From the UHGV virus genome UHGV-0151217: a stretch of DNA of 32,488 nt; one strand, 5' to 3'. How positions within the stretch are numbered: position 1 is the first letter of the stretch; each line of letters begins with the position of its first letter. Origin of the DNA: a virus. Under the pieces are notes generated by a model, which worked only from the letters and a program-made list of their open reading frames with translations, ran no database searches and had not been told where the DNA came from. The position numbers and the translations under genes were made by a program. This document shows, one piece after another, positions 7,442 through 31,359 of the stretch.

Positions 7442-8152
7442 ATGAAAAATAAATACATCGCCAAAATTAAAAAGCTGTTACGCCTTGCAAGAGGGACATC
7501 AAGCCCGGAAGAAGCCGCTAACGCTATTGCAAAAGCCCAGGCTTATATGCGCCAGCATGGTATCAGCGAAAACGACGCGGAATTGTTCGACATTCAGGAC
7601 GCTGCCAGCGCGGGTGCGCCGAGTGATGCCAGTACACCGCCGCGTTATATGCACATCCTGTGTGACCTGGTCTGTAAAGCCTTCGGTGTCGAGTGTTACA
7701 TCTCCGGCGAATACCGGGCTTCTGGTTCACTCAAACGTTACGTTCGTTTTTATGGTCCTGACAGCCGCCCGGAAATCGCGGCCTACGCGTTTGATGTGCT
7801 TTCCCGTCAGATGATGGCAGAGCGCAAGAAATATCAGGATAAACACTGCAAACGTTGCGGTCCGTCCACGCGGGTGGCCCGTGGCGACCAGTTCTGCGAA
7901 GGCTGGGGCTTTGGTGCCCGTGATGTCATTGCGGTGTATGACGTCTCCCCGGAAGAAAAAAGCCGCCTTGAGCTTTACAGAAAGAACCTGCACAGCACCA
8001 AGGGACTGCGCGACGGGGATATGCGCACCGCTAAAGCGTGCCGGGGTGCAGAGTCTGCCGCTACAGCCGGTTTTATCGCCGGGAAAAACGCCAGACTGCA
8101 TCAGGGGGTTAATGGTCAGAGCAACAAAACGCTGGCACTGGGGAGGGTGTAA
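7442..8152 (+). CDS. DUF2786-like protein (phage accessory protein of unknown function)
   Basis: N-terminus KIKKLLRLARGTSSPEEAANAIAKAQAYMRQHGI matches my memory of the DUF2786 signature. Central cysteines (HCKRCG ... QFCEGWG) suggest a metal-binding module. Confidence 0.7.
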   Translation: MKNKYIAKIKKLLRLARGTSSPEEAANAIAKAQAYMRQHGISENDAELFDIQDAASAGAPSDASTPPRYMHILCDLVCKAFGVECYISGEYRASGSLKRYVRFYGPDSRPEIAAYAFDVLSRQMMAERKKYQDKHCKRCGPSTRVARGDQFCEGWGFGARDVIAVYDVSPEEKSRLELYRKNLHSTKGLRDGDMRTAKACRGAESAATAGFIAGKNARLHQGVNGQSNKTLALGRV

Positions 8153-8154
8153 CG

Positions 8155-8382
8155 ATGGCTTTTAAACTTCTCAGTGTTACCGAAGCAATATACCAGCCGC
8201 CCGGAGAACGCCACGAATACAGGATGAATGACGGTAGCGCGGCGGTTGAGTTCCCTGAATATCCGGGGGCTTCCCGGTGGCGGTTCTATGACAGTGCGGG
8301 ACGCCGGATTATTAAAAGAACCGTGCACAACGCCATGAAAGCTGCTGTAGAACGTCACAAAAGAAGGTTTAACTGCAAATGA
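8155..8382 (+). CDS. Hypothetical protein
   Basis: 75-aa ORF with RBS GGGAGGG. Packed tightly between neighbours. Confidence 0.55.
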   Translation: MAFKLLSVTEAIYQPPGERHEYRMNDGSAAVEFPEYPGASRWRFYDSAGRRIIKRTVHNAMKAAVERHKRRFNCK

Positions 8383-8609
8383 ATATTGAATTTTATGACT
8401 ACGGAGTCACCGCAAAAATCATTGTTACCTGCTGGTTCTGGGAGTTCCGCCGCTATCGCCGGGTTGTGGATGCGGCGCTGTTTGTTGCTCCTGAAGTGCG
8501 CCATGAGAGCGGTGGCGGTCTTTTAATGAGAACAGTCATCACCGGTAAAACGGTTCCGATGTTACGGGCGTTTAAGGTGGCAAAACAGGAGGCTGGCAAT
8601 GGTCATTGA
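8379..8609 (+). CDS. Hypothetical protein
   Basis: 76-aa ORF with ATGA overlap to the upstream stop. Confidence 0.5.
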   Translation: MNIEFYDYGVTAKIIVTCWFWEFRRYRRVVDAALFVAPEVRHESGGGLLMRTVITGKTVPMLRAFKVAKQEAGNGH

Positions 8610-8889
8610 TAAAACGATAACGATAGATGTAGCCATGAATACAGGTCTGGCGCTTATCGGTTATGGCTATATCATTTTTATGTCATTCAGGTGGTTGATT
8701 TCTTCGTTCTTTAAGCAATGTGAAAAACGTCGCCGCAAAGACAAGCGCGTGAAGGCGCTAAATGCGTTTAATGACGCTTTTGATATTGACCGTATGCAGC
8801 AGGGAGATCCGGCACGCGTAATTACCCTGGGAGATATCGTGATTTTGGTATACCGGAGTGAAAAAAATGAGCAGGAGGCGGCGCAGTGA
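8599..8889 (+). CDS. Hypothetical small membrane protein
   Basis: 96 aa, RBS AGGAGG 7 nt upstream. One predicted N-terminal transmembrane segment (LALIGYGYIIFMSFRWLISSFF) followed by a basic stretch. Confidence 0.55.
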   Translation: MVIDKTITIDVAMNTGLALIGYGYIIFMSFRWLISSFFKQCEKRRRKDKRVKALNAFNDAFDIDRMQQGDPARVITLGDIVILVYRSEKNEQEAAQ

Positions 8890-9194
8890 ACCAGCAAACC
8901 AGAATAAGCGATAAGAGCCTGACCAGACTGATTGCCGATGCTGACAAAATGCTTGATATGCGCGGGCCGATTGTAGACAGAGAGTGGTGGACGCTCTTAC
9001 GGCAGTCCCTGCTGGAGCTTCAGGAATACCGGAGAGCAGGAATCATTCCGGTGACACCGGGAGCAAAAGAGCATCAGCTCAGGGAGCTGGTTAATAAATT
9101 ACGCGATGTGGCAATCAAATACCACGGAACGCAGCAATTACGGGCGCATATTGCAAAAACAGTAATCCGTTCAGGACTGATTTCAGGGGAATAA
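8886..9194 (+). CDS. Hypothetical protein
   Basis: 102-aa ORF from a GTG start overlapping the upstream stop (GTGA), with AGGAGG upstream. Confidence 0.5.
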   Translation: MNQQTRISDKSLTRLIADADKMLDMRGPIVDREWWTLLRQSLLELQEYRRAGIIPVTPGAKEHQLRELVNKLRDVAIKYHGTQQLRAHIAKTVIRSGLISGE

Positions 9195-9198
9195 TCAG

Positions 9199-9381
9199 AT
9201 GAAAAACCGTAAAGCAAAAATTCTTTTGACCTGTAGAAACGCTCGCGGCGTCCAGCAATGGCTAAAACTCAGTAACCGCAGAATGGGTTTGTTCACAAAC
9301 ACAGCTGATATTGTGATGTGTTCCCTTAACAAGCCCAGCGCAGCCCAAAATCGCTGGAAGAATCACACTAACGCAAAGTAA
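9199..9381 (+). CDS. Hypothetical small basic protein
   Basis: 60-aa ORF with RBS CAGGGGAA. Confidence 0.45.
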   Translation: MKNRKAKILLTCRNARGVQQWLKLSNRRMGLFTNTADIVMCSLNKPSAAQNRWKNHTNAK

Positions 9382-9399
9382 TTAAATAATAACCAACAG

Positions 9400-9445
9400 C
9401 AGACCAAAACATATGTTTTGGTCTGCCAAAAATGATGTTTTGGTC
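9400..9445. promoter_or_regulatory. Operator-like site: 26-bp perfect palindrome plus a third half-site
   Basis: CAGACCAAAACAT|ATGTTTTGGTCTG (9400-9425) and a further GTTTTGGTC at 9437-9445, just downstream of an AT-rich -10-like stretch (TAATTAAATAAT) and directly upstream of ATG 9449. Confidence 0.4.
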
Positions 9446-9448
9446 ATT

Positions 9449-9727
9449 ATGAAGATTGAACAAATCGGAATGGCAGCTTTCAGGCAACAGGCTGAAAGCG
9501 GTGGCGTGGATGAGTTCGTCGTGCAGCGGTTCGGGGGTGTGTATCACCTCTTCGCTGTGAATCGCCGCGCCGGGGTGTCCTATTTTCTACAGGAACGCCG
9601 TGGCGATTACAAGACGTGGCTGTCTCTTGACCGTGCCGCCGCGTTCCTGTCGGGGATTGGTGTTTCACGTTTTACCGTGCGTTTTGAGGATAACAAACAT
9701 GCAGAAAAAGATGATCGGGGCCATTAA
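9449..9727 (+). CDS. Hypothetical protein (start uncertain)
   Basis: ORF open from 9413 with in-frame ATGs at 9413, 9449 and 9470 and no clear RBS. 3' end overlaps gemA by 29 nt. Confidence 0.4.
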   Translation: MKIEQIGMAAFRQQAESGGVDEFVVQRFGGVYHLFAVNRRAGVSYFLQERRGDYKTWLSLDRAAAFLSGIGVSRFTVRFEDNKHAEKDDRGH

Positions 9728-10112
9728 AGCCGGTCAGGCATATCTGGGGTGGGATGATGCTCTTTATCGCCAGACACTGATCCGCCTGACAGGTAAAACC
9801 AGCACCACACGCTGCAATCTCGATGAACTGCGCATCATCCGGGAATACATGCACGAACAGGGATTTCCGCGCAAGGCCCCCGCTGGTAAAGGTCGCCGCC
9901 CTCGTGTTGCAATGAGCAGAAAATCGGTATTATCCAAAATTGAAGCGTTACTGGCTGATGCCGGTCGTTCCTGGGCGTATGCGGAAGGACTGGCATCTCA
10001 CATGTATAAGCAACATGTGATCGAATGGCTGACGGATGAACAGCTTTTCGGGGTGATGGTGGCGCTGACAAAAGACGCCAGAAAACGAGTCAGAGCAGCA
10101 CGTAAACAATAA
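9699..10112 (+). CDS. gemA: GemA-like regulatory protein (DUF1018 family)
   Basis: 137 aa from ATG 9699 with RBS GAGGA. MIGAIKAGQAYLGWDDALYRQTLIRLTGKTS... matches the GemA/DUF1018 pattern, and the position before Mor/C matches Mu. Confidence 0.7.
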   Translation: MQKKMIGAIKAGQAYLGWDDALYRQTLIRLTGKTSTTRCNLDELRIIREYMHEQGFPRKAPAGKGRRPRVAMSRKSVLSKIEALLADAGRSWAYAEGLASHMYKQHVIEWLTDEQLFGVMVALTKDARKRVRAARKQ

Positions 10113-10118
10113 AGAATC

Positions 10119-10145
10119 AGCCCCTGCCTTGCAGGGGCTTTTTTG
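10119..10145 (+). terminator. Rho-independent terminator after gemA
   Basis: AGCCCCTGC-CTT-GCAGGGGCT hairpin followed by TTTTTT. Confidence 0.6.
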
Positions 10146-10150
10146 TGGTC

Positions 10151-10178
10151 TGTACAGGCGATCATGTATGGCTATAAT
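10151..10178 (+). promoter_or_regulatory. Candidate sigma70 promoter upstream of the Mor/C-family gene (possible middle promoter)
   Basis: Perfect TATAAT at 10173-10178 with TGTACA 16 bp upstream, 30 bp before ATG 10208. Confidence 0.35.
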
Positions 10179-10207
10179 AACAGTAAGTTACTACCGGAGA
10201 CGCCATC

Positions 10208-10675
10208 ATGCAGACCTTCAGTGAAACAGATCTTCGCGATGCGCAGGCACTGCTGCCCGATTCCGTGCAGCAACTGATTAGCGTGATTGGCTTCCCCGCC
10301 ATGACCCGGTTGATTCGTTCTTTTGGTGGCGTGACGTTAAGCGGTAAAACCGGCGCACACGCCGAACGTACTGGCGGTGTCCATGCCCTGTTACATGACG
10401 TGCTGACCGAAGACGAAATCAACAAACTGATCCGCTTTCTTGGCGGTGCTCCGTTTTACATTCCCCGTTGCGATCATGCGTTACGTGCTCTGCGTAACGC
10501 CCGTTTTATGGCTGATTTACAGCAGCATATCAGAGACGGATTTTCACACCGGCAGGCGCTGGCACTGCTTTGTCCCCGTTACGGGATTTCAGACCGGTAC
10601 GCATGGCAGCTGATACACCGACGACAAAAACAGACTTCGCTGAAAAGCCCCACCCAGGTGGGGCTTTTTGATTAA
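10208..10675 (+). CDS. Mor/C-family transcriptional activator of late (or middle) genes
   Basis: C-terminal LIRFLGGAPFYIPRCDHALRALRNARFMADL...YGISDRYAWQLIHRR aligns with the Mu Mor/C HTH region (...HLGGGQVYIPRG...). Which of Mor or C it corresponds to is unresolved. Confidence 0.8.
   Translation: MQTFSETDLRDAQALLPDSVQQLISVIGFPAMTRLIRSFGGVTLSGKTGAHAERTGGVHALLHDVLTEDEINKLIRFLGGAPFYIPRCDHALRALRNARFMADLQQHIRDGFSHRQALALLCPRYGISDRYAWQLIHRRQKQTSLKSPTQVGLFD
10646..10670 (+). terminator. Rho-independent terminator at the end of the Mor/C-family gene
   Basis: AGCCCCACC-CAG-GTGGGGCT hairpin followed by TTTTT, overlapping the last codons. Confidence 0.55.
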
Positions 10676-10701
10676 TGGGCCTCAGAAAAAAGGAGACACT
10701 T

Positions 10702-10980
10702 ATGACCAACTATACGGCACTTGGCGAGTATACAGCCTACTCAGAGCAGGCCCGGGATGCTGCCGGACGCCGCTTCGCTTATATGAAAAATCTGGCCAGC
10801 CAGCTAAACCGAATGGCCGAACAACCGGATATGGTTGTTCAGGAAGAAGCGTTGCAGTGTGCCATTGCTGACATCATCGCCAGCGAAAACGAGATGCGTG
10901 CAGCGATGGAAAAGGCGAACGCCTCTGCTCCGCTTTGTAATAAACCTCTTATTACGCCGGATTCTCTTTCCCGCTTCTGA
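10702..10980 (+). CDS. Hypothetical protein
   Basis: 92 aa from ATG 10702 with RBS AAGGAG. The ORF is open from 10675. Confidence 0.5.
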   Translation: MTNYTALGEYTAYSEQARDAAGRRFAYMKNLASQLNRMAEQPDMVVQEEALQCAIADIIASENEMRAAMEKANASAPLCNKPLITPDSLSRF

Positions 10981-11000: not shown

Positions 11001-11027
11001 GGGTGCTGAACTCCCTCAGCAGTACCC
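11001..11027 (+). promoter_or_regulatory. Conserved late-region motif, copy A (candidate activator-dependent late promoter element)
   Basis: GGGTGCTGAACTCCCTCAGCAGTACCC, 24/27 identical to copy B at 19005-19031. Lies upstream of the lysis cassette. Confidence 0.4.
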
Positions 11028-11162
11028 ACCACACCAGACCGTTTACCCTGTCCACTCAGACCACAAGGCACCTTAAGGGATAGCGCCCTGCAAAAGGCTT
11101 CTGTGCCTTTGACAGGGTGTTATTTACGGGCCGTCAGTGGCTCAGATTTACAGGAGAAACTC

Positions 11163-11555
11163 ATGTCTGAACCCTTATCAGGCGGTGGAGCTGTGGCAGT
11201 CACCATTGGTGGTGCCAGTGTGTTTGGTCTTCTCACCAATACCGATTTCGGGGTTGTGGTGGGCGCGTTTGCCGGGGCGCTTTTTGTTGTCACGCAGCAG
11301 AAAGAAATCCCGGTCTGGCGAATGGCCATCCACCTGCTCGTCGCATTTGTGGTTGGCGTTCTGGGGGCTGGCGTGGCTGCGTCACTGATGCAGTGGCTGA
11401 CCCACTACAACGACAAGCCGCTCGATGCATTGTGTGCGGTCGGTGTCTCGGCGTTATCCATCAAGATACTGACCTTTCTTTATCAACAGGAAATTTCATC
11501 GCTGTTCGGCCTGTTTTCCAGACTGCGCGGCGGAGGGGGTGGAAATGGAAAGTAG
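11163..11555 (+). CDS. Putative holin / lysis membrane protein
   Basis: 130 aa with RBS CAGGAGAAA, about three hydrophobic segments and a Gly-rich C-terminus. First gene of the lysis block. Confidence 0.5.
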   Translation: MSEPLSGGGAVAVTIGGASVFGLLTNTDFGVVVGAFAGALFVVTQQKEIPVWRMAIHLLVAFVVGVLGAGVAASLMQWLTHYNDKPLDALCAVGVSALSIKILTFLYQQEISSLFGLFSRLRGGGGGNGK

Positions 11556-13172: not shown

Positions 13173-13913
13173 ATGCAAAAACAGATTATTGGTAACGCAA
13201 CGTTGTATTGCGGTGATGTTCTTGATGTGCTGCCGGCGTTATCCGAACGTTTTGATGCCGTCATTACCGACCCGCCTTACAGCAGTGGTGGTACACACAA
13301 ATCAGACCGCAGCATGGCCCCTTCGGACAAGTATATCGGTCACACCCAGTATGCCGAGTTCACCGGCGATAACCGCGACCAGCGCAGCTGGGCGTTCTGG
13401 TGTTCCATGTGGATATCTCATGCATTGCACAGGCTGAATTCCGGCGGTTATTTCATGGTGTTCAGTGACTGGCGACAACTACCGGCGCTTACAGATGCAT
13501 TTCAGGCCGGTGGTGTGCTGTGGCGTGGTCTGGTTGTCTGGGATAAAACGCAGGCTTCCCGTGCGCCACACACTGGCTATTTTCGGCATCAGGCCGAGTA
13601 TGTGGTCTGGGGCAGCAACGGAAAACTCGACAAATGCCCGCACGGTGGCCCGTTCCCGGGTGTGATTACGCAGCGTGTCGTCCCGTCCGAAAAACTGCAC
13701 ATGACCGCAAAGCCGGTTCAGCTGATGGCTGAGCTGGTTAAACCGCTGACACCGGATGCGCACGTCCTTGATCCGTTTATGGGAAGCGGCACTACCGCCA
13801 TCCCTGTACTTGCCCGTGGCGGACGGTTTACCGGCATTGAAATGACTAACCAGTATTTTGATATCGCCTGCGCACGAATCGAAAAAGCCCAGACAGAAGC
13901 AGTGCAGGTGTGA
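13173..13913 (+). CDS. DNA methyltransferase (amino-MTase, beta-class: N6-adenine or N4-cytosine)
   Basis: Catalytic motif IV DPPY (ITDPPYSSGG) near the N-terminus and AdoMet motif I (DPFMGSGTT) near the C-terminus. This order is typical of beta-class enzymes such as the CcrM/HinfI type. No adjacent restriction gene. Confidence 0.85.
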   Translation: MQKQIIGNATLYCGDVLDVLPALSERFDAVITDPPYSSGGTHKSDRSMAPSDKYIGHTQYAEFTGDNRDQRSWAFWCSMWISHALHRLNSGGYFMVFSDWRQLPALTDAFQAGGVLWRGLVVWDKTQASRAPHTGYFRHQAEYVVWGSNGKLDKCPHGGPFPGVITQRVVPSEKLHMTAKPVQLMAELVKPLTPDAHVLDPFMGSGTTAIPVLARGGRFTGIEMTNQYFDIACARIEKAQTEAVQV

Positions 13914-17150: not shown

Positions 17151-18303
17151 CGATGTTGACCTGGGTTATGCGTACACCCTGAAACCGGAAGAAGCGATTA
17201 GGTATTTCGAAAGCAAGGGATACGTTATCGGCTTCCGCTGGCACGATGTGAGGGACATCGCCAGTGCCCGGGCGTTCACGGTGGCAGGCGTGCTGAAACT
17301 GGATGTTCTGAAGGATATCCGTGATGGCCTGACGACGGCACTGGCTGATGGCGGGACGTTCCGGGAGTTTGCAGCACAACTGGAACCACTGCTGGAATCA
17401 AAAGGCTGGCTGGGTAAAAAGCTGATTGTGGACGAGGACACCGGCGAACTGCACGGCAGACAGCTGACGCCGCGCCGGTTGCGCACGATATTTGATACCA
17501 ACATTCAGTCGTCCTACAACGCCGGACGTTATCAGCAGCAGATGGCGAACGTGGCTGACCGGCCTTATTTTGAGCGCGTGGCGGTGATGGACCTTCACAC
17601 CCGCCCGAAACACGCCGCCCTGAACGGTTTTACCGCCCGGGCGGATGATCCGGTCTGGGAGTATCTCTACGCGCCGGACGGGTACGGATGCCGCTGCCGT
17701 ATCCGGGCGCGTTCGGCGTCGGATGTGGAGAAATATGGCCTGACGGTGCAGAGCAGCGAGGGGCGGCTGGTTGAGGTTGAGCAGGAATATGGCCAGCCGG
17801 GCCAGACCATCAGAACGATGGGGCTGAAAATGCCGGACGGATCCGTGTATACCGCCGACCCGGGCTTTGGATTTAATCCCGGTCGGGTGGCATGGCAGCC
17901 GGAACTGGAAAAATATGATTACCGCAGCGCCCGCCAGTATGTCACCGGCACGCTGACCGGGCCGGATTTTGCCCGGGGACTGGCGAACGTCAGCGAACTG
18001 GATGCGCGCCAGCGATATCCGCTGGCCATCCGTTCACCGGAACAGGTCGCCGCCACGGGCGCTGCACGGCAGACGGTAAACCTTACGGCTGACGTCATGC
18101 AGCGCCTCAGCGCAGCAGACACGCCCCCGACCGCCGCCGACTATGCGCTGATGCAGCAGACCATCGAACGGGCGGAGCATGTCACGCAGGACGGTAACGC
18201 GTGGCGGTATGCGTTACAGTCAGGCGACCGCTGGTCGGTGGTGACGGTTGAGGATGGCACGCTGACAGACTGGGTGATGCAGGACACCCCGGAGGCATCA
18301 TGA
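17137..18303 (+). CDS. Head morphogenesis protein (Mu F-like)
   Basis: 388 aa with RBS GGGGAGA, overlapping the portal 3' end. Sequence is typical of the Mu F / SPP1 gp7 head morphogenesis family. Confidence 0.8.
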   Translation: MPTADDVDLGYAYTLKPEEAIRYFESKGYVIGFRWHDVRDIASARAFTVAGVLKLDVLKDIRDGLTTALADGGTFREFAAQLEPLLESKGWLGKKLIVDEDTGELHGRQLTPRRLRTIFDTNIQSSYNAGRYQQQMANVADRPYFERVAVMDLHTRPKHAALNGFTARADDPVWEYLYAPDGYGCRCRIRARSASDVEKYGLTVQSSEGRLVEVEQEYGQPGQTIRTMGLKMPDGSVYTADPGFGFNPGRVAWQPELEKYDYRSARQYVTGTLTGPDFARGLANVSELDARQRYPLAIRSPEQVAATGAARQTVNLTADVMQRLSAADTPPTAADYALMQQTIERAEHVTQDGNAWRYALQSGDRWSVVTVEDGTLTDWVMQDTPEAS

Positions 18304-18851
18304 GCACCGGTAAACTGGATATTAAGATTGATTTAAGCGCGTATAACACCACGCTGGGGAAACTGATTCGTTCCGTGAAGGACCGGCGCGACCTGATGAC
18401 GGCACTTGCAGGCTCCATGCTGGATGCGGTTGAAACTAACTTTGAACAACAGGGTCGCCCGAAATGGATGGGCTGGAGTCCGGCCTATGCGAAACGGCGC
18501 GGCCCCGGGCAAATCCTTCAGAAGTCCGGGCGACTGGCTGCCAGTATCCGCTCTGCGGTTAACAATAACGAGGCCACGGTCGGGACAAACGTCCGTTATG
18601 CCCGTATCCACAACGAAGGCGGCGAAATACGCCATCAGGCACGGACGCAGAACCTGTATTTTAAGCAGTACAGGAACGGCAGCGTCAGCACCCGCTTTGT
18701 GAAGAAGCGCAACAGTAATTTTGTACAGAGCGCAACGGTCGGAGCGTATACGGTCAACATGCCCGCGCGCCCCTTCCTTCAGCTTGTACAGGACGACATC
18801 GACGAGCTGGAGAACACCGCAAACCGCTATTTTGCGCGTGTGATTGACTGA
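18300..18851 (+). CDS. Virion morphogenesis protein (Mu G-like)
   Basis: 183 aa with RBS GGAGG and an ATGA overlap with F. Position and size match Mu gpG. Confidence 0.7.
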   Translation: MSTGKLDIKIDLSAYNTTLGKLIRSVKDRRDLMTALAGSMLDAVETNFEQQGRPKWMGWSPAYAKRRGPGQILQKSGRLAASIRSAVNNNEATVGTNVRYARIHNEGGEIRHQARTQNLYFKQYRNGSVSTRFVKKRNSNFVQSATVGAYTVNMPARPFLQLVQDDIDELENTANRYFARVID

Positions 18852-19004
18852 ATGACCAGAAGCGCGCTGTAATCGCTTCTGACGACATAAACGCCTCACG
18901 GATGAGGCATTGCAGCACCGCACCCCATAAATGCCGCCAGAATCGTTTTTAAAAGGGTTTTAAAAACGGTTTTATTTCCCCTTTTATCCTTTCCCGTTAT
19001 GGCA

Positions 19005-19031
19005 GGGTGCTGAACACCCTCCACAGTACCC
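19005..19031 (+). promoter_or_regulatory. Conserved late-region motif, copy B
   Basis: GGGTGCTGAACACCCTCCACAGTACCC, 21 bp upstream of the first in-frame ATG of the I-like gene. Confidence 0.4.
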
Positions 19032-19051
19032 CGTGTTCCCCTTCCGTCATC

Positions 19052-20176
19052 ATGCCGCGCATGAAGATGAACATTGCGGCGTTAAGCCTCGAAATTACTA
19101 AAGCAACCCACAGCGAAATCCAGCTGTTTCCGGCAGGCGAGTTCAGCGCGGTGGATGGTCGCCCGTATACCGATGAAGTCGAAAGCGGTAAATGGGTGCT
19201 GACTGCCGGACTGGCCGCGCAGCTTGTCGCACAGGTGGCAGCCCGTACCACGCCTTTTGTCATTGATTACGAACATCAGACGCTGCGCGCCGTAAACAAC
19301 GGCAAGCCTGCCCCGGCGGCGGGCTGGTTCAGCCAGGTGGAATGGCGTGAAGGTTCGGGCCTGTATGCCATCGGTGTGGAGTGGACGGAGAACGCGGCGG
19401 CCATGATTGCCGCCGGAGAGTACAAATTTATTTCCCCGGTATTTGGATACAACCGGCGCGGCGAAGTCATCGAACTGTTACACGCCGCACTGACCAATAC
19501 CCCGGCGCTGGACGGTATGGACGCGGTCATGCTGGCTGCGGCCAGCCGTCTGGCGAGTCTGTCAACTGAAACGGAGACCACAACAGTGGATGAAGAACTG
19601 TTAAACGATTTGCTGTCCAGTCTGCGCTGGATGCTTAACCTCCCGGTTACCTCAACGGCGGAAGATATCAAAAACGAGCTGCAAAAGGTCGTTGACATGA
19701 TTTCGAACGGTCAGGGAACGGCGGCGGCATCCGTCAGCCTGCTGGCCCTGCTGAATCAGAAAGATGAGCAAATCGCCAGCCTGTCAGCCAGTGCCTATGA
19801 CCCGTCAAAACACATTTCCCTTGCTGCCTTCGAAGAACTTCAGGGGCGTTATGCCGCACTGGCGCAACAGTCCGGTGAGGCCGAAGCCGGGGCACTGATT
19901 CAGGCGGCGCTGTCTGACGGGCGACTGCTTCCGGCACAGGAAGACTGGGCGAAAGATTACGCCAGCCGCGATATCAACGGCTTTAAGTCCTGGCTGGATA
20001 ACGCACCGAAACTTGTTGCGCTCAGTCAGACCCAGACGGGCGGCAAACCACCCCAAACGCCGTCACCGGCCCCGGCGCAGATTAAAACCGGCGATGACGT
20101 CGATATCGATATCGCCATTTGTTCAATGATGGGCGTTGATCCAGAAGATATCGCCCGTTACGCAGGAGAAAAGTAA
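19052..20176 (+). CDS. Mu I-like protein (head protease / scaffold)
   Basis: About 374 aa. Start is uncertain (in-frame ATGs at 19052, 19061, 19067; no clear SD). Ala-rich C-terminal half. Lies between G and the capsid gene as in Mu. Confidence 0.75.
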   Translation: MPRMKMNIAALSLEITKATHSEIQLFPAGEFSAVDGRPYTDEVESGKWVLTAGLAAQLVAQVAARTTPFVIDYEHQTLRAVNNGKPAPAAGWFSQVEWREGSGLYAIGVEWTENAAAMIAAGEYKFISPVFGYNRRGEVIELLHAALTNTPALDGMDAVMLAAASRLASLSTETETTTVDEELLNDLLSSLRWMLNLPVTSTAEDIKNELQKVVDMISNGQGTAAASVSLLALLNQKDEQIASLSASAYDPSKHISLAAFEELQGRYAALAQQSGEAEAGALIQAALSDGRLLPAQEDWAKDYASRDINGFKSWLDNAPKLVALSQTQTGGKPPQTPSPAPAQIKTGDDVDIDIAICSMMGVDPEDIARYAGEK

Positions 20177-29110: not shown

Positions 29111-30305
29111 CGACGACAAAATCAGCCTGGTCATTGCCGGAAGATCGCATTCTGACTGGAGCAGTTATCGTATTGACAGCGATTTCCTGAAAGCAGCCGA
29201 CGGGTGGCAGCTTCAGCTGGGACTGCCTGAAAAGGTGTTCCCGGCGGATATCGTCCGGGGTGCGCCAGTCCGTTTGCAGGTGGGAGATGAGACGGTCCTT
29301 AGTGGTCGCGTGGACAGCGTGCGCCGCAGTGTATCCCGTCAGAGCTGCGCGCTGACCCTGTCCGGGCGTGATGATGCCGCCATTCTGGTGGACTGTGCCG
29401 CGCCGGTGTTCAGCGCCAATCAGCTGACACTGGACGAGGTCATCGACAGGATAGTCAGACCGCTGGGGATACAGCGCATCCGTATTCAGGCGTCTGGTGT
29501 GTCACGTAATGACAAGGTCGTTATAGAGCCGGGGATGCGTGCGTGGGATGCACTGGCTAAAGCTGCCGCCGGTCGCGGCTTATGGCCGTGGTTTGAGCCT
29601 GACGGTACGCTGGTTGTGGGTGGCCCTGACTACACCACCACGCCGGTGGACACGCTGATTCTGAAGCTGGACGGTACCGGGAACAACGTGATGGAGCTGG
29701 ACGATACCAGGTCCATTAACGGCTGTTTCTCCGAACTGACAGTACTGGCTCAGAGCCACGCCCGCCGCGCAGACAGCAAGAAACAGGTAGCCGTGGTGCC
29801 ACTGGACATCTGGAACGAGGACGGCAGCGTGCGCACATTATCCGGGCAGGGCAGCGGTAATGCAGGTGGTGGTCAGACAGGCATTCATAACATGAAAGCC
29901 GTGGCCACCGACCCCACCGTGGATTATTACCGCCCGCAGATAATCACCCAGGGCGACACCAGTAACATGGAGCAGGTGAACTGGCGCGCAAAAAAAATGA
30001 TGAGTGATGCCCGTCTGTCGGGGCTGGATATCGTTGCACTGGTTGCAGGCCATCGCACGGCGGACGGTGTCCTGTGGCAGCCCGGCCAGCGTGTGCGGAT
30101 TGTCAGCGAACTCCACGGCATTGATGCCATCTTTTTCCTGATGGGGCGTGAGTTCAGCGGAGGCCGGAACGGGCAGACAACCCGGCTTCGCTTTAAGGAG
30201 GACGGCGTGTGGATACCTGACGCCTTCCCGCGTGAGAAGAAACGCCATCACCGCAGGGGCAAAAAGAAAAAAGAGGTCGCCATTGTTAAGGTCTGGGAGA
30301 AATGA
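29094..30305 (+). CDS. Tail/baseplate hub protein (Mu P-like, phage late control D family)
   Basis: 403 aa overlapping the N-like gene, with a basic C-terminal tail (KKRHHRRGKKKK). Confidence 0.7.
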   Translation: MPMQNNDDKISLVIAGRSHSDWSSYRIDSDFLKAADGWQLQLGLPEKVFPADIVRGAPVRLQVGDETVLSGRVDSVRRSVSRQSCALTLSGRDDAAILVDCAAPVFSANQLTLDEVIDRIVRPLGIQRIRIQASGVSRNDKVVIEPGMRAWDALAKAAAGRGLWPWFEPDGTLVVGGPDYTTTPVDTLILKLDGTGNNVMELDDTRSINGCFSELTVLAQSHARRADSKKQVAVVPLDIWNEDGSVRTLSGQGSGNAGGGQTGIHNMKAVATDPTVDYYRPQIITQGDTSNMEQVNWRAKKMMSDARLSGLDIVALVAGHRTADGVLWQPGQRVRIVSELHGIDAIFFLMGREFSGGRNGQTTRLRFKEDGVWIPDAFPREKKRHHRRGKKKKEVAIVKVWEK

Positions 30306-30955
30306 TGTGGGACAAGGTTAATCAGCGCATACAGCAGGCACTGGCCACCGTTCGCCAGGCATTCAGGGTGGTGACCGGTACGGTGGACAGTTCGACCAAA
30401 GTACAGCTTCTCCAGCTGAACGGGCTGGCAGGCGAGCAGCTGGACGGTGCGGAGTATTTTCAGCATTACGGCCTCACCACATCCCCGCCGCCCGGCTCTA
30501 TGGGTATTGCCGTTCCGCTGAACGGTAATACCTCCCATACCGTCATCGTGGCCACAGAGCACGGCGCATATCGCCTGACGGAACTGAAACCCGGCGAGGT
30601 GGCCCTGTATACCGATGAAGGCGCGAAAATCGTACTGAAGCGCGGGCGGATTGTTGAAACCGAATGTGACGTTTACCGGGTGAAATGCAAACGCTATGAG
30701 GTTGAGGCAGAGGAGAACGCCGCATTCACGACACCGTTACTGACGGCCAGCGATAAGCTGACAGTGGAAGGTAAAATCACCGGCAGTGGTGGCATGGCCA
30801 TCAGTGGGGGCAAGAAATATGCCGCCACCTTTGAAGGCAACATCAACCATGTGGGTGGTGTGATTACCTCCGTTGACGTCACCGTTAATGGCATTAAAAT
30901 CGGAACGCACAAACACCCGACCCCACACGGCATGTCTGACACGCCGGTTAATTAA
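30302..30955 (+). CDS. Baseplate assembly protein V-like (spike; Mu gp45-like)
   Basis: 217 aa with RBS GGAGA and an ATGA overlap. OB-fold-like N-terminal region typical of gpV spikes. Confidence 0.7.
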   Translation: MMWDKVNQRIQQALATVRQAFRVVTGTVDSSTKVQLLQLNGLAGEQLDGAEYFQHYGLTTSPPPGSMGIAVPLNGNTSHTVIVATEHGAYRLTELKPGEVALYTDEGAKIVLKRGRIVETECDVYRVKCKRYEVEAEENAAFTTPLLTASDKLTVEGKITGSGGMAISGGKKYAATFEGNINHVGGVITSVDVTVNGIKIGTHKHPTPHGMSDTPVN

Positions 30956-30970
30956 GTGCTGAACACCCTC
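30956..30970 (+). promoter_or_regulatory. Conserved late-region motif, copy C (core GTGCTGAACACCCTC)
   Basis: The 15-mer is identical to the core of copy B. It lies 39 bp upstream of the gp46-like gene. Confidence 0.35.
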
Positions 30971-31008
30971 ACCTGATTCTGACCTGTCCATGCTGCCAGA
31001 CTGGCGGC

Positions 31009-31359
31009 ATGGACCAGACGATTTCACCTGCAACCGGCGACTACGAACGCCGCCGGATTTATACACTTCATAACGCGGTTTATCTGCGACTGGCGACGCC
31101 GCTTGGCAGTTACTGGGCGGATGCGTCGCTGGGGTCACGCCTGCACGAACTGAAGCGGGAAAAAGACGTTTCCCGTGTTCACAGGCTGGCGGCGCAGTAT
31201 GCCAGTCAGGCGCTTCAGCCCCTGCTTGATGACGGGCGGGCAAAATCCATTACCGTTGACACGAAAGCGGGCCAGCGCGGCTGGTTGTTGCTGTTAATCA
31301 CCGTCACGGATAACGCGGGCACACCGCAGACGTTTGAACACCCTGTGAGGATTATGTAA
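31009..31359 (+). CDS. GP46-family baseplate protein
   Basis: 116-aa ORF whose size and position before the J-like gene match Mu gp46. The start has a weak RBS. Confidence 0.6.
   Translation: MDQTISPATGDYERRRIYTLHNAVYLRLATPLGSYWADASLGSRLHELKREKDVSRVHRLAAQYASQALQPLLDDGRAKSITVDTKAGQRGWLLLLITVTDNAGTPQTFEHPVRIM

Follow-up and report, generated by a model that had tools for sequence, protein, structure and literature searches.

The late activator C of bacteriophage Mu binds a 16-bp imperfect dyad centered at -43.5, and the four late promoters of Mu have a -10 hexamer and no -35 hexamer (PMC2582627). The consensus for C binding is TTAT-N5-6-ATAA (PMC12867686). In cryo-EM, the DNA covered by the C tetramer is about 26 bp long and lies upstream of the -35 position (bioRxiv 10.1101/2025.05.02.651988).

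Here, we analyzed a stretch of 32,488 nucleotides (virus genome UHGV-0151217), referred to as the window. It is the left and central part of an uncharacterized Mu-like Escherichia coli prophage, which is not Mu itself. A motif in three copies, named A, B, and C, had been noticed upstream of late gene blocks in a sequence-only reading of this DNA.

Results

Three motif copies in a Mu-like prophage

A megablast search of 50,697 genomes of isolated phages gave no match to the window. Prophages that are 95-99.7% identical to it are carried by about 55 complete E. coli genomes, including that of EPEC E2348/69. In E. coli strain RIVM_C036569 (locus L001), the complete element lies between uspA and dtpB.

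The window has the gene order of Mu: a repressor, a ner-like gene, transposase A, B, early genes, GemA (9600-10112), and a Mor-family gene (10208-10675). These are followed by a small ORF (10675-10980), two holins, an endolysin, terminase, portal, F, and G (18300-18851). After G come the I protease, the T capsid protein, tail genes, N, P, gp45 (30302-30955), gp46 (31009-31359), and gp47/J. A DNA methyltransferase gene is located at 13173-13913, within the lysis/packaging operon. The features used in the analysis are as follows:

10208-10675, + strand: Mor/C-family activator gene (155 aa), which follows gemA like Mu mor and precedes the lysis genes like Mu C
11001-11027, + strand: site A, GGGTGCTGAACTCCCTCAGCAGTACCC, matrix score 33.9; predicted activator-binding site of the lysis-operon late promoter
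11005-11020, + strand: core dyad of site A, GCTGAACTCCCTCAGC
11044-11049, + strand: predicted -10 hexamer of site A, TACCCT, with a predicted transcription start at about 11056
11163-11555, + strand: holin gene, the first gene of the lysis/packaging operon, with a normal Shine-Dalgarno sequence, AGGAG
19005-19031, + strand: site B, GGGTGCTGAACACCCTCCACAGTACCC, matrix score 28.6; predicted activator-binding site of the head (I protease/T capsid) operon promoter
19009-19024, + strand: core dyad of site B, GCTGAACACCCTCCAC
19048-19053, + strand: predicted -10 hexamer of site B, CATCAT, overlapped by the first in-frame ATG (19052)
19061-20176, + strand: I protease/scaffold gene, with its ATG (19061) at offset 56; the PGAP start is identical
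30954-30980, + strand: site C, matrix score 28.3; predicted activator-binding site of the baseplate/tail-fiber operon promoter
30958-30973, + strand: core dyad of site C, GCTGAACACCCTCACC
30997-31002, + strand: predicted -10 hexamer of site C, CAGACT
31009-31359, + strand: gp46, a Mu V-like baseplate protein gene, with its ATG at offset 55, the predicted transcription start

Copies A and B had been described as identical at 24 of 27 positions, with a core that is common to copy C, and the sequences agreed with this description when they were checked. The 15 bp at site C (30956-30970) are GTGCTGAACACCCTC, which match copy B at 15/15 and copy A at 14/15 positions. The 27-mer pattern occurred twice in the window, compared to 0.00 expected occurrences from 100 shuffles. 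The 15-mer, with three or fewer mismatches allowed, gave four matches vs. 0.92 expected; the three real ones had zero or one mismatch and were all on the + strand.

Site A begins 21 bp past the stop codon of ORF 10675-10980, 3' of the Mor-family gene and 5' of the holin gene. Site B is located between the G-like gene, which ends at 18851, and the I protease gene. Site C adjoins the TAA of gp45 (30953-30955), and the gp46 ATG (31009) lies 53 nt further on. Thus, the gene context bears out the original statement that the copies precede the lysis, I, and gp46 blocks. A fourth copy near the right end had also been suggested, and none was present in the part of the L001 prophage beyond the window. 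Neither a com/mom module nor a fourth late promoter was found in the prophage.

Architecture of the predicted promoters

Positions at each site are given as offsets, where offset 0 is the first base of the 27-mer (A, 11001; B, 19005; C, 30954). Offsets 4-19 form a 16-bp imperfect dyad, GCTGA-N6-TCAGC, with its center at 11.5. The dyad is perfect in A, whereas the right arm departs from this in B (TCCAC) and in C (TCACC). A longer, 27-bp dyad, GGGTGCTG-N11-CAGTACCC, was considered and set aside: the bases on its right are restricted to the E. coli lineage, with no counterpart in copy C or in the relatives, and the conserved dyad is the inner 16 bp.

All three sites have a -10-like hexamer at offsets 43-48, which starts 31.5 bp downstream of the dyad center. 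The hexamers follow the pattern TAnnCT/CAnnAT, or [TC]Ann[CA]T, and are often followed directly by G-n-C. No -35 hexamer was found between the dyad and the -10-like hexamer; the bases at offsets 20-25 (AGTACC, TGATTC) match TTGACA at two or fewer of six positions. A scan for sigma-70 consensus promoters returned nothing at any of the three sites.

The Mu late promoters were taken from the annotation of AF083977 for comparison. At Pmom, the center of TTAT-N6-ATAA is at index 10.5 and the -10 hexamer (TAAGAT) starts at index 42, a distance of 31.5 bp. This dyad-to-hexamer geometry is shared by Mu Plys, PI, PP, and Pmom and equals that of the sites described here. The Mu -10 hexamers are TAGACT, CAAACT, TATCCT, and TAAGAT, compared to TACCCT, CATCAT, and CAGACT in the window, and several of the two sets share a CTG-n-C continuation. 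The Mu -10 regions TAGACTGCC and CAAACTGAC resemble TACCCTGTC and CAGACTGGC of the prophage. Also, the footprint of the Mu C tetramer (~26 bp) is close to the length of the 27-bp block that A and B have in common. The shared geometry, the -10 regions, and the lack of a -35 hexamer therefore indicate that the sites have the architecture of Mu late promoters with different half-sites.

The motif first described is real; however, the leading GG of its GGGTG is not conserved in relatives, where its information content is approximately zero. The conserved unit is also longer than had been described, as it takes in the hexamer at offset 43 of each copy.

Instead of acting as promoters, these short, GC-rich, partly palindromic intergenic sequences could be repetitive elements of the host, duplication relics, or intrinsic terminators. 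In an unrelated AT-rich phage family in IMG/VR, the reverse complement of GGGGGTGCTGAACACCCCC does serve as a terminator, a hairpin with a T-run after it: L025, L028, L032, L042, and about 15 other loci carry GGGGGTGCTGAACACCCCC, and the opposite strand reads as a hairpin followed by TTTTGTTT. We regard this occurrence as coincidental. At the sites in the window, an intrinsic terminator scan of both strands made no call at any site, there is no T-run, and the stem is not conserved. A host repeat had been named in the sequence-only reading as a finding that would speak against the promoter proposal. All copies found lie within the prophage: about 14 kb of host DNA flanking L001 and the host sequence flanking 40 other loci contained none, and the high-scoring matches were all on the + strand. 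The motif travels with the prophage across Enterobacterales, Pasteurellales, Oceanospirillales, and Pseudomonadales, and conservation is limited to the motif and the hexamer, with drift in the spacer between them. A repeat, relic, or terminator is, in light of these results, an extremely improbable account of the three copies.

Conservation of the sites in related prophages

The close relatives in IMG/VR retain sites A and B. Around site B, E. coli genomes yielded only close relatives, which were at least 94% identical. At site A, the upstream ORF comes in two very different alleles and homology restarts exactly at the motif. These are the alleles of the small ORF 10675-10980, which has no assigned function; their products are only ~45% identical in otherwise near-identical E. 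coli prophages, and the recombination boundary falls exactly at the motif.

More distant prophages were collected with the activator protein. A search of genome contigs with a single Mor protein found no loci, and an alignment query was needed. With an alignment of 22 activator homologs as the query and one genome per species, 41 loci were obtained. In L142, where the activator is 85% identical, the site reads GGGTGCTGAACCCCCCCAGCAGTACC, followed by a diverged spacer and TATTCT at offset 43. In a Salmonella prophage whose activator is 66% identical, AAGTGCTGAACCCCGTC adjoins a stop codon and has TACACT at offset 43. Before I, this prophage has GGGTGCTGAACCCGGTC, with TACGCT at offset 43. The hexamers found at offset 43 of orthologous sites with diverged spacers include TATTCT, TATCTT, TATCCT, TACACT, CAGAAT, and CACAAT.

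Units of motif, spacer, and hexamer were found on the + strand just after the Mor gene and just before I in Salmonella, Trabulsiella, Xenorhabdus, Photorhabdus, Intestinirhabdus, Buttiauxella, several Pasteurellaceae, Neptunomonas, Pseudomonas, and phage MP22. Orthologous sites were present where the activator was only 31-66% identical. Site C was seen in four enterobacterial relatives with 73-79% identical gp46; there, nnGCTGAAC...TCAnC follows the gp45 stop codon and CA[GC]ACT is at offset 43. The gap from the gp45 stop to the gp46 ATG is exactly 53 nt in the window and in these four relatives.

The association of motif and hexamer was also counted with no selection for the hexamer. In 30 loci, GCTGAA-N5-[TC]C located after Mor or before I was accompanied by.A...T at offset 43 in 25/25 cases, compared to 10/67 for the same pattern elsewhere. 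The information profile of 34 distinct sites showed conservation at offsets 2-19, none across the spacer (20-42), and conserved A44 and T48. Distant lineages have the left-arm variants ACTGAAC, GTTGAAG, GTGGAAC, and GAGGAAG, and both sites of one genome carry the same variant, as is expected for targets that co-evolve with a phage-encoded protein.

A weight matrix was then trained on the relatives only. It scored sites A, B, and C at 33.9, 28.6, and 28.3 bits, respectively; the next match in the window scored 12.7 and the maximum among shuffled sequences was 16.3. Exactly three sites were found in the complete L001 prophage, and a scan of Mu with the matrix found no site. Over 812 kb of loci, there were 50 matches above 17 bits, all on the + strand. 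These sit at the expected positions except for an extra site in Xenorhabdus and Photorhabdus and two low scorers, at 2923 in L170 (17.3 bits) and at 9177 in L172 (19.5 bits). An IMG/VR scan for GGTGCTGAACNCCCNC gave mostly chance matches: one fell within a portal gene, that of a distant Mu-like phage, and others belonged to the AT-rich phage family with the terminator on the other strand.

We conclude with good confidence that the three copies are the operator parts of activator-dependent sigma-70 late promoters. The original proposal of several activator-dependent late promoters that resemble those of Mu C and differ in sequence agrees with all the sequence-level and comparative tests.

The predicted activator

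The product of the Mor-family gene matches Pfam Mor (PF08765) with 28.9 bits, above the GA cutoff of 24.9. When a profile of 22 homologs was searched against the PDB, the sole match was the Mu 'late transcription activator C' (E=0.002). BLASTP against Mu C gave E=1e-5, with 18/41 identical residues across the GGxxFYIP linker, and the alignment of the two proteins is confined to short segments. This linker is common to the activator, Mu C, and Mor, and GGxxFYIPR is conserved. The activator subfamily has an insertion of ~10 aa before the HTH and an SDRxxW recognition helix in which SDR is invariant. Structure prediction produced a confident helical model, and the matches of the fold search were not specific.

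The C-terminus of the activator is QVGLFD (10654-10672), and the 22 homologs share QxGLF/QxxLF at this end. In sequence, QVGLFD/QxGLF resembles the beta-clamp-binding motif QL[SD]LF. The latter motif was recently shown to be necessary for Mu C-dependent transcription.

We infer that the dyad is bound by the 10208-10675 protein. Another possibility is that the promoter architecture is the same and the dyad is recognized by a different factor, either the product of ORF 10675-10980 or a host protein. The small ORF does lie between the Mor gene and site A, and the residues of the recognition helix showed no clean pattern of covariation with the motif variants. The ORF is nevertheless missing from many relatives that bear the motif, and its two ~45%-identical alleles are found beside the same motif. 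A host factor is at odds with the motif tracking the Mor subfamily across four bacterial orders and different hosts. Since the geometry also equals that of Mu C sites, recognition by some other factor is improbable, and we retain the Mor/C-family protein as the predicted activator.

No second Mor-like ORF was found in 7442-10980, and neither a Pm-like site nor a second Mor paralog was found in the window. Two Mor paralogs are present in Xenorhabdus ehlersii (L147) and Photorhabdus cinerea (L150), with a further variant site, AACCACTGAACCCCTTCAAC...AATACT, between the two (at 9907 and 9897, respectively). This site resembles a middle promoter of the Mu Pm type, and the second paralog together with the inter-paralog site (CACTGAAC) looks like the Mu arrangement of Mor to Pm to C.

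Gene starts and predicted leaderless mRNAs

In Mu, transcription starts 7 nt past the last base of the -10 hexamer, and this rule gives offset 55 for the sites described here. The predicted +1 is thus the A of the gp46 ATG (31009) and, for I, position 19060, next to the ATG at 19061. The gp46 ATG is the first start codon in its frame, and synonymous variation directly after it marks the sequence as coding.

Copy B had raised a concern because it lies so close to the first ATG of the I gene, and it had been proposed that either the gene starts further downstream or the motif acts differently there. The first of these holds: ATG 19052 is part of the predicted -10 hexamer, and the start that orthologs share is the second ATG, 19061, which coincides with the predicted transcription start. 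The motif therefore does not act differently at copy B. Offset 55-56 is also where the I gene has its ATG in Salmonella, Trabulsiella, Xenorhabdus, Photorhabdus, Intestinirhabdus, Buttiauxella, Neptunomonas, and Pseudomonas, with a matching N-terminus, MK..IA. More generally, an ATG follows the hexamer by 7-8 nt at I and gp46 in many genera.

Anti-Shine-Dalgarno pairing was compared across 51 prophage genes. I had the weakest pairing (0.0 kcal/mol) and gp46 the third weakest (-1.5 kcal/mol). Since their ATGs are at the predicted +1 or 1 nt past it and they have no Shine-Dalgarno sequence, we lean slightly toward I and gp46 being translated from leaderless mRNAs, with the transcription starts themselves being predictions.

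The fixed spacing could, on the other hand, reflect a function in RNA, where the motif would act as a hairpin (GGGTG-CTGAA-CACCC or GCTGA...TCAGC) or a protein site, serving as a translation enhancer of the Com/mom kind or in processing. At B and C, the motif is indeed fixed at 55 nt from an ATG that lacks a Shine-Dalgarno sequence, and copy B and the L001 copy of A can form a GC stem of 5-7 bp. The GGGTG/CACCC stem is, however, missing from copy C and most relatives, and this hairpin was rejected as it is not conserved. For the other pairing, GCTGA is invariant while the right arm is TCAGC, TCAAC, TCCAC, TCACC, TCCTC, or TCATC, and nothing in the left arm compensates for these changes. At the A sites and the Pasteurellaceae I sites, the motif is also at variable distances from the ATG (80 to 160 nt), with the hexamer constant at offset 43. 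The Pasteurellaceae I genes have leaders of ~25-30 nt and still keep this hexamer position, which shows that the fixed partner of the motif is the hexamer and not the ATG. An RNA-level function is, therefore, very improbable, and a DNA site of a promoter remains our reading of the motif.

The Pseudomonas aeruginosa phages D3112, MP22, and JBD (Casadabanvirus) encode a 'late transcriptional activator' that is 32% identical to the activator described here. In MP22 (NC_009818), a GTTGAA-variant motif at 9571, after the activator gene, is followed by a hexamer and, at offset 56, by ATG 9627, the annotated start of orf19a. A second GTTGAA-variant motif, at 18596 before the protease gene, is followed by a hexamer and ATG 18652, again at offset 56. 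The RefSeq start of the MP22 protease (18778) is probably 42 codons too far downstream: ATG 18652 has no Shine-Dalgarno sequence and is at the predicted +1, and the protein sequence read from it resembles I. The known acr promoter region of MP22, upstream of orf29a, has a TAATCT hexamer 6 nt before the ATG, and this mRNA may also be leaderless. These two MP22 observations concern 10597-10655 and 9395-9445 of locus L191.

Elements near the predicted promoters

The predicted leader of the lysis operon (11056-11162) contains a long, very stable hairpin at 11078-11125, GGATAGCGCCCTG...(AAGGC...GCCTT)...CAGGGTGTTATTT. RNA folding of 11056-11170 gave -46.6 kcal/mol (z = -4.6). The hairpin is present in L011, L012, and L014 with a compensatory change from CCCTG/CAGGG to CCCGG/CCGGG. 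It could be an attenuator, a terminator, or a stabilizing 5' structure.

Several Pasteurellaceae loci (L154, L160-L167, L171, L174, L175, L178, and L182-L184) have a perfect terminator, a GC stem plus T7-8, after the Mor-like gene. It sits between the after-Mor hexamer and the ATG of the lysis gene, with the T-run adjoining the ATG and the predicted +1 within the 5' arm of the stem. Because of this position, read-through RNA would terminate, and RNA initiated at the promoter could not form the hairpin.

Upstream of site B, in the intergenic region between G and I, there is an AT-rich palindromic phased element at 18935-18975, CGTTTTTAAAAGGGTTTTAAAAACGGTTTTATTT, which is also found at 452-490 and 3707. 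Salmonella, Trabulsiella, and Xenorhabdus have similar TTTAAAA repeats in the equivalent position, as do Pasteurellaceae, in which the copies are in tandem with an 11-bp period. Mu has TTTAAAA repeats at 17890-17935, beside the annotated gyrase cut site at 17879. The 18935-18975 element is a candidate analogue of the Mu strong gyrase site.

Discussion

Taken together, the comparisons suggest a model for late transcription in this prophage. Each promoter would consist of a dyad with an invariant left arm, a C-rich center, a degenerate right arm, and a few lineage-specific promoter-proximal bases. A non-conserved spacer with no -35 hexamer would come next, and then a weak -10 hexamer, so that the dyad is centered near -43.5. 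In the manner of Mu C, the Mor/C-family protein would bind the dyad as an oligomer, overlap the -35 region, and recruit or activate the RNA polymerase holoenzyme. The three promoters would head the lysis/packaging, head (I-T...), and baseplate/tail-fiber (gp46-J...) operons. The activator itself is presumably made from the early transcript, like Mu mor, which would give an early-to-late cascade with no middle step. This two-tier cascade is suggested by the single family member and by its place after gemA and before the lysis genes. I and gp46 would be expressed efficiently only from activator-dependent initiation.

The model may extend well beyond E. coli. In a broad Mu-like clade, which comprises Enterobacterales, Neptunomonas, and Pseudomonas (including D3112/MP22/JBD), late transcription may start on the AUG of the first gene of the operon, which is I or gp46; in Pseudomonas, the gene that follows the activator gene would be a further case. 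Lacking a Shine-Dalgarno sequence, such genes would then be translatable only from activator-initiated leaderless mRNA and not from read-through transcripts, and one activator would take the place of the Mor-to-C relay in the E. coli prophage analyzed here. We consider this combined proposal to be evenly balanced between holding and failing. If it is true, the translation of the first late genes is inherently coupled to the firing of the late promoters.

The promoter class and the protein family are known from Mu, and what is new is the DNA specificity. In the searchable, non-subscription literature, we found no earlier description of the motif or the promoters, and none of Mu-like phages with leaderless late genes. 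A description of late promoters of the D3112/MP22/JBD type was likewise not found in the literature searched.

The analysis provides a testable promoter model, with a consensus, a spacing, and a predicted +1, for the late genes of a widespread group of Mu-like prophages. This group includes prophages of pathogenic E. coli (E2348/69, STEC), Salmonella, Haemophilus, and Pseudomonas. The Mor/C paradigm gains a second DNA specificity with the same geometry, which should be useful for structural work on Mu C and for work on clamp coupling. Two gene starts are also corrected: I starts at 19061, and the MP22 protease probably starts 42 codons before its RefSeq start. Should the leaderless reading be true, these would be phage structural operons in which leaderless translation is tied to an activator-dependent promoter.

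The cI mRNA that phage lambda makes from PRM is a leaderless phage mRNA. The predicted I and gp46 mRNAs would be like it in that the predicted start is at the A of the AUG and no Shine-Dalgarno sequence is present. Unlike cI, however, I and gp46 each head a late operon of structural genes and would be made from an activator-dependent promoter, with starts that are predicted here. The D3112/MP22/JBD group, which has the related activator, consists of siphoviruses with a different tail module.

Mu itself is the closest described system. Like the prophage, Mu has several late-operon promoters, one after the activator gene and before lysis and one between G and I. Both have a small Mor/C-family activator and a 16-bp dyad with two half-sites of 4-5 bp that are 6 bp apart. 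The half-sites are GCTGA/TCAGC and not TTAT/ATAA; therefore, these are not Mu C sites, and they represent a different specificity within the family. There are three promoters rather than four, and no mom. The third promoter lies between gp45 and gp46, whereas PP of Mu is inside N, upstream of P. The predicted +1 falls at the ATG for two of the promoters, in contrast to the leader of ~26 nt at Mu PI. Mor and Pm of Mu provide a further parallel, as they belong to the same protein family and promoter class, with a dyad upstream of the -35 region and overlapping it, and the activator gene follows gemA as mor does. The sites described here, however, head late genes, while Pm of Mu heads middle genes, and one activator gene stands where Mu has both Mor and C.
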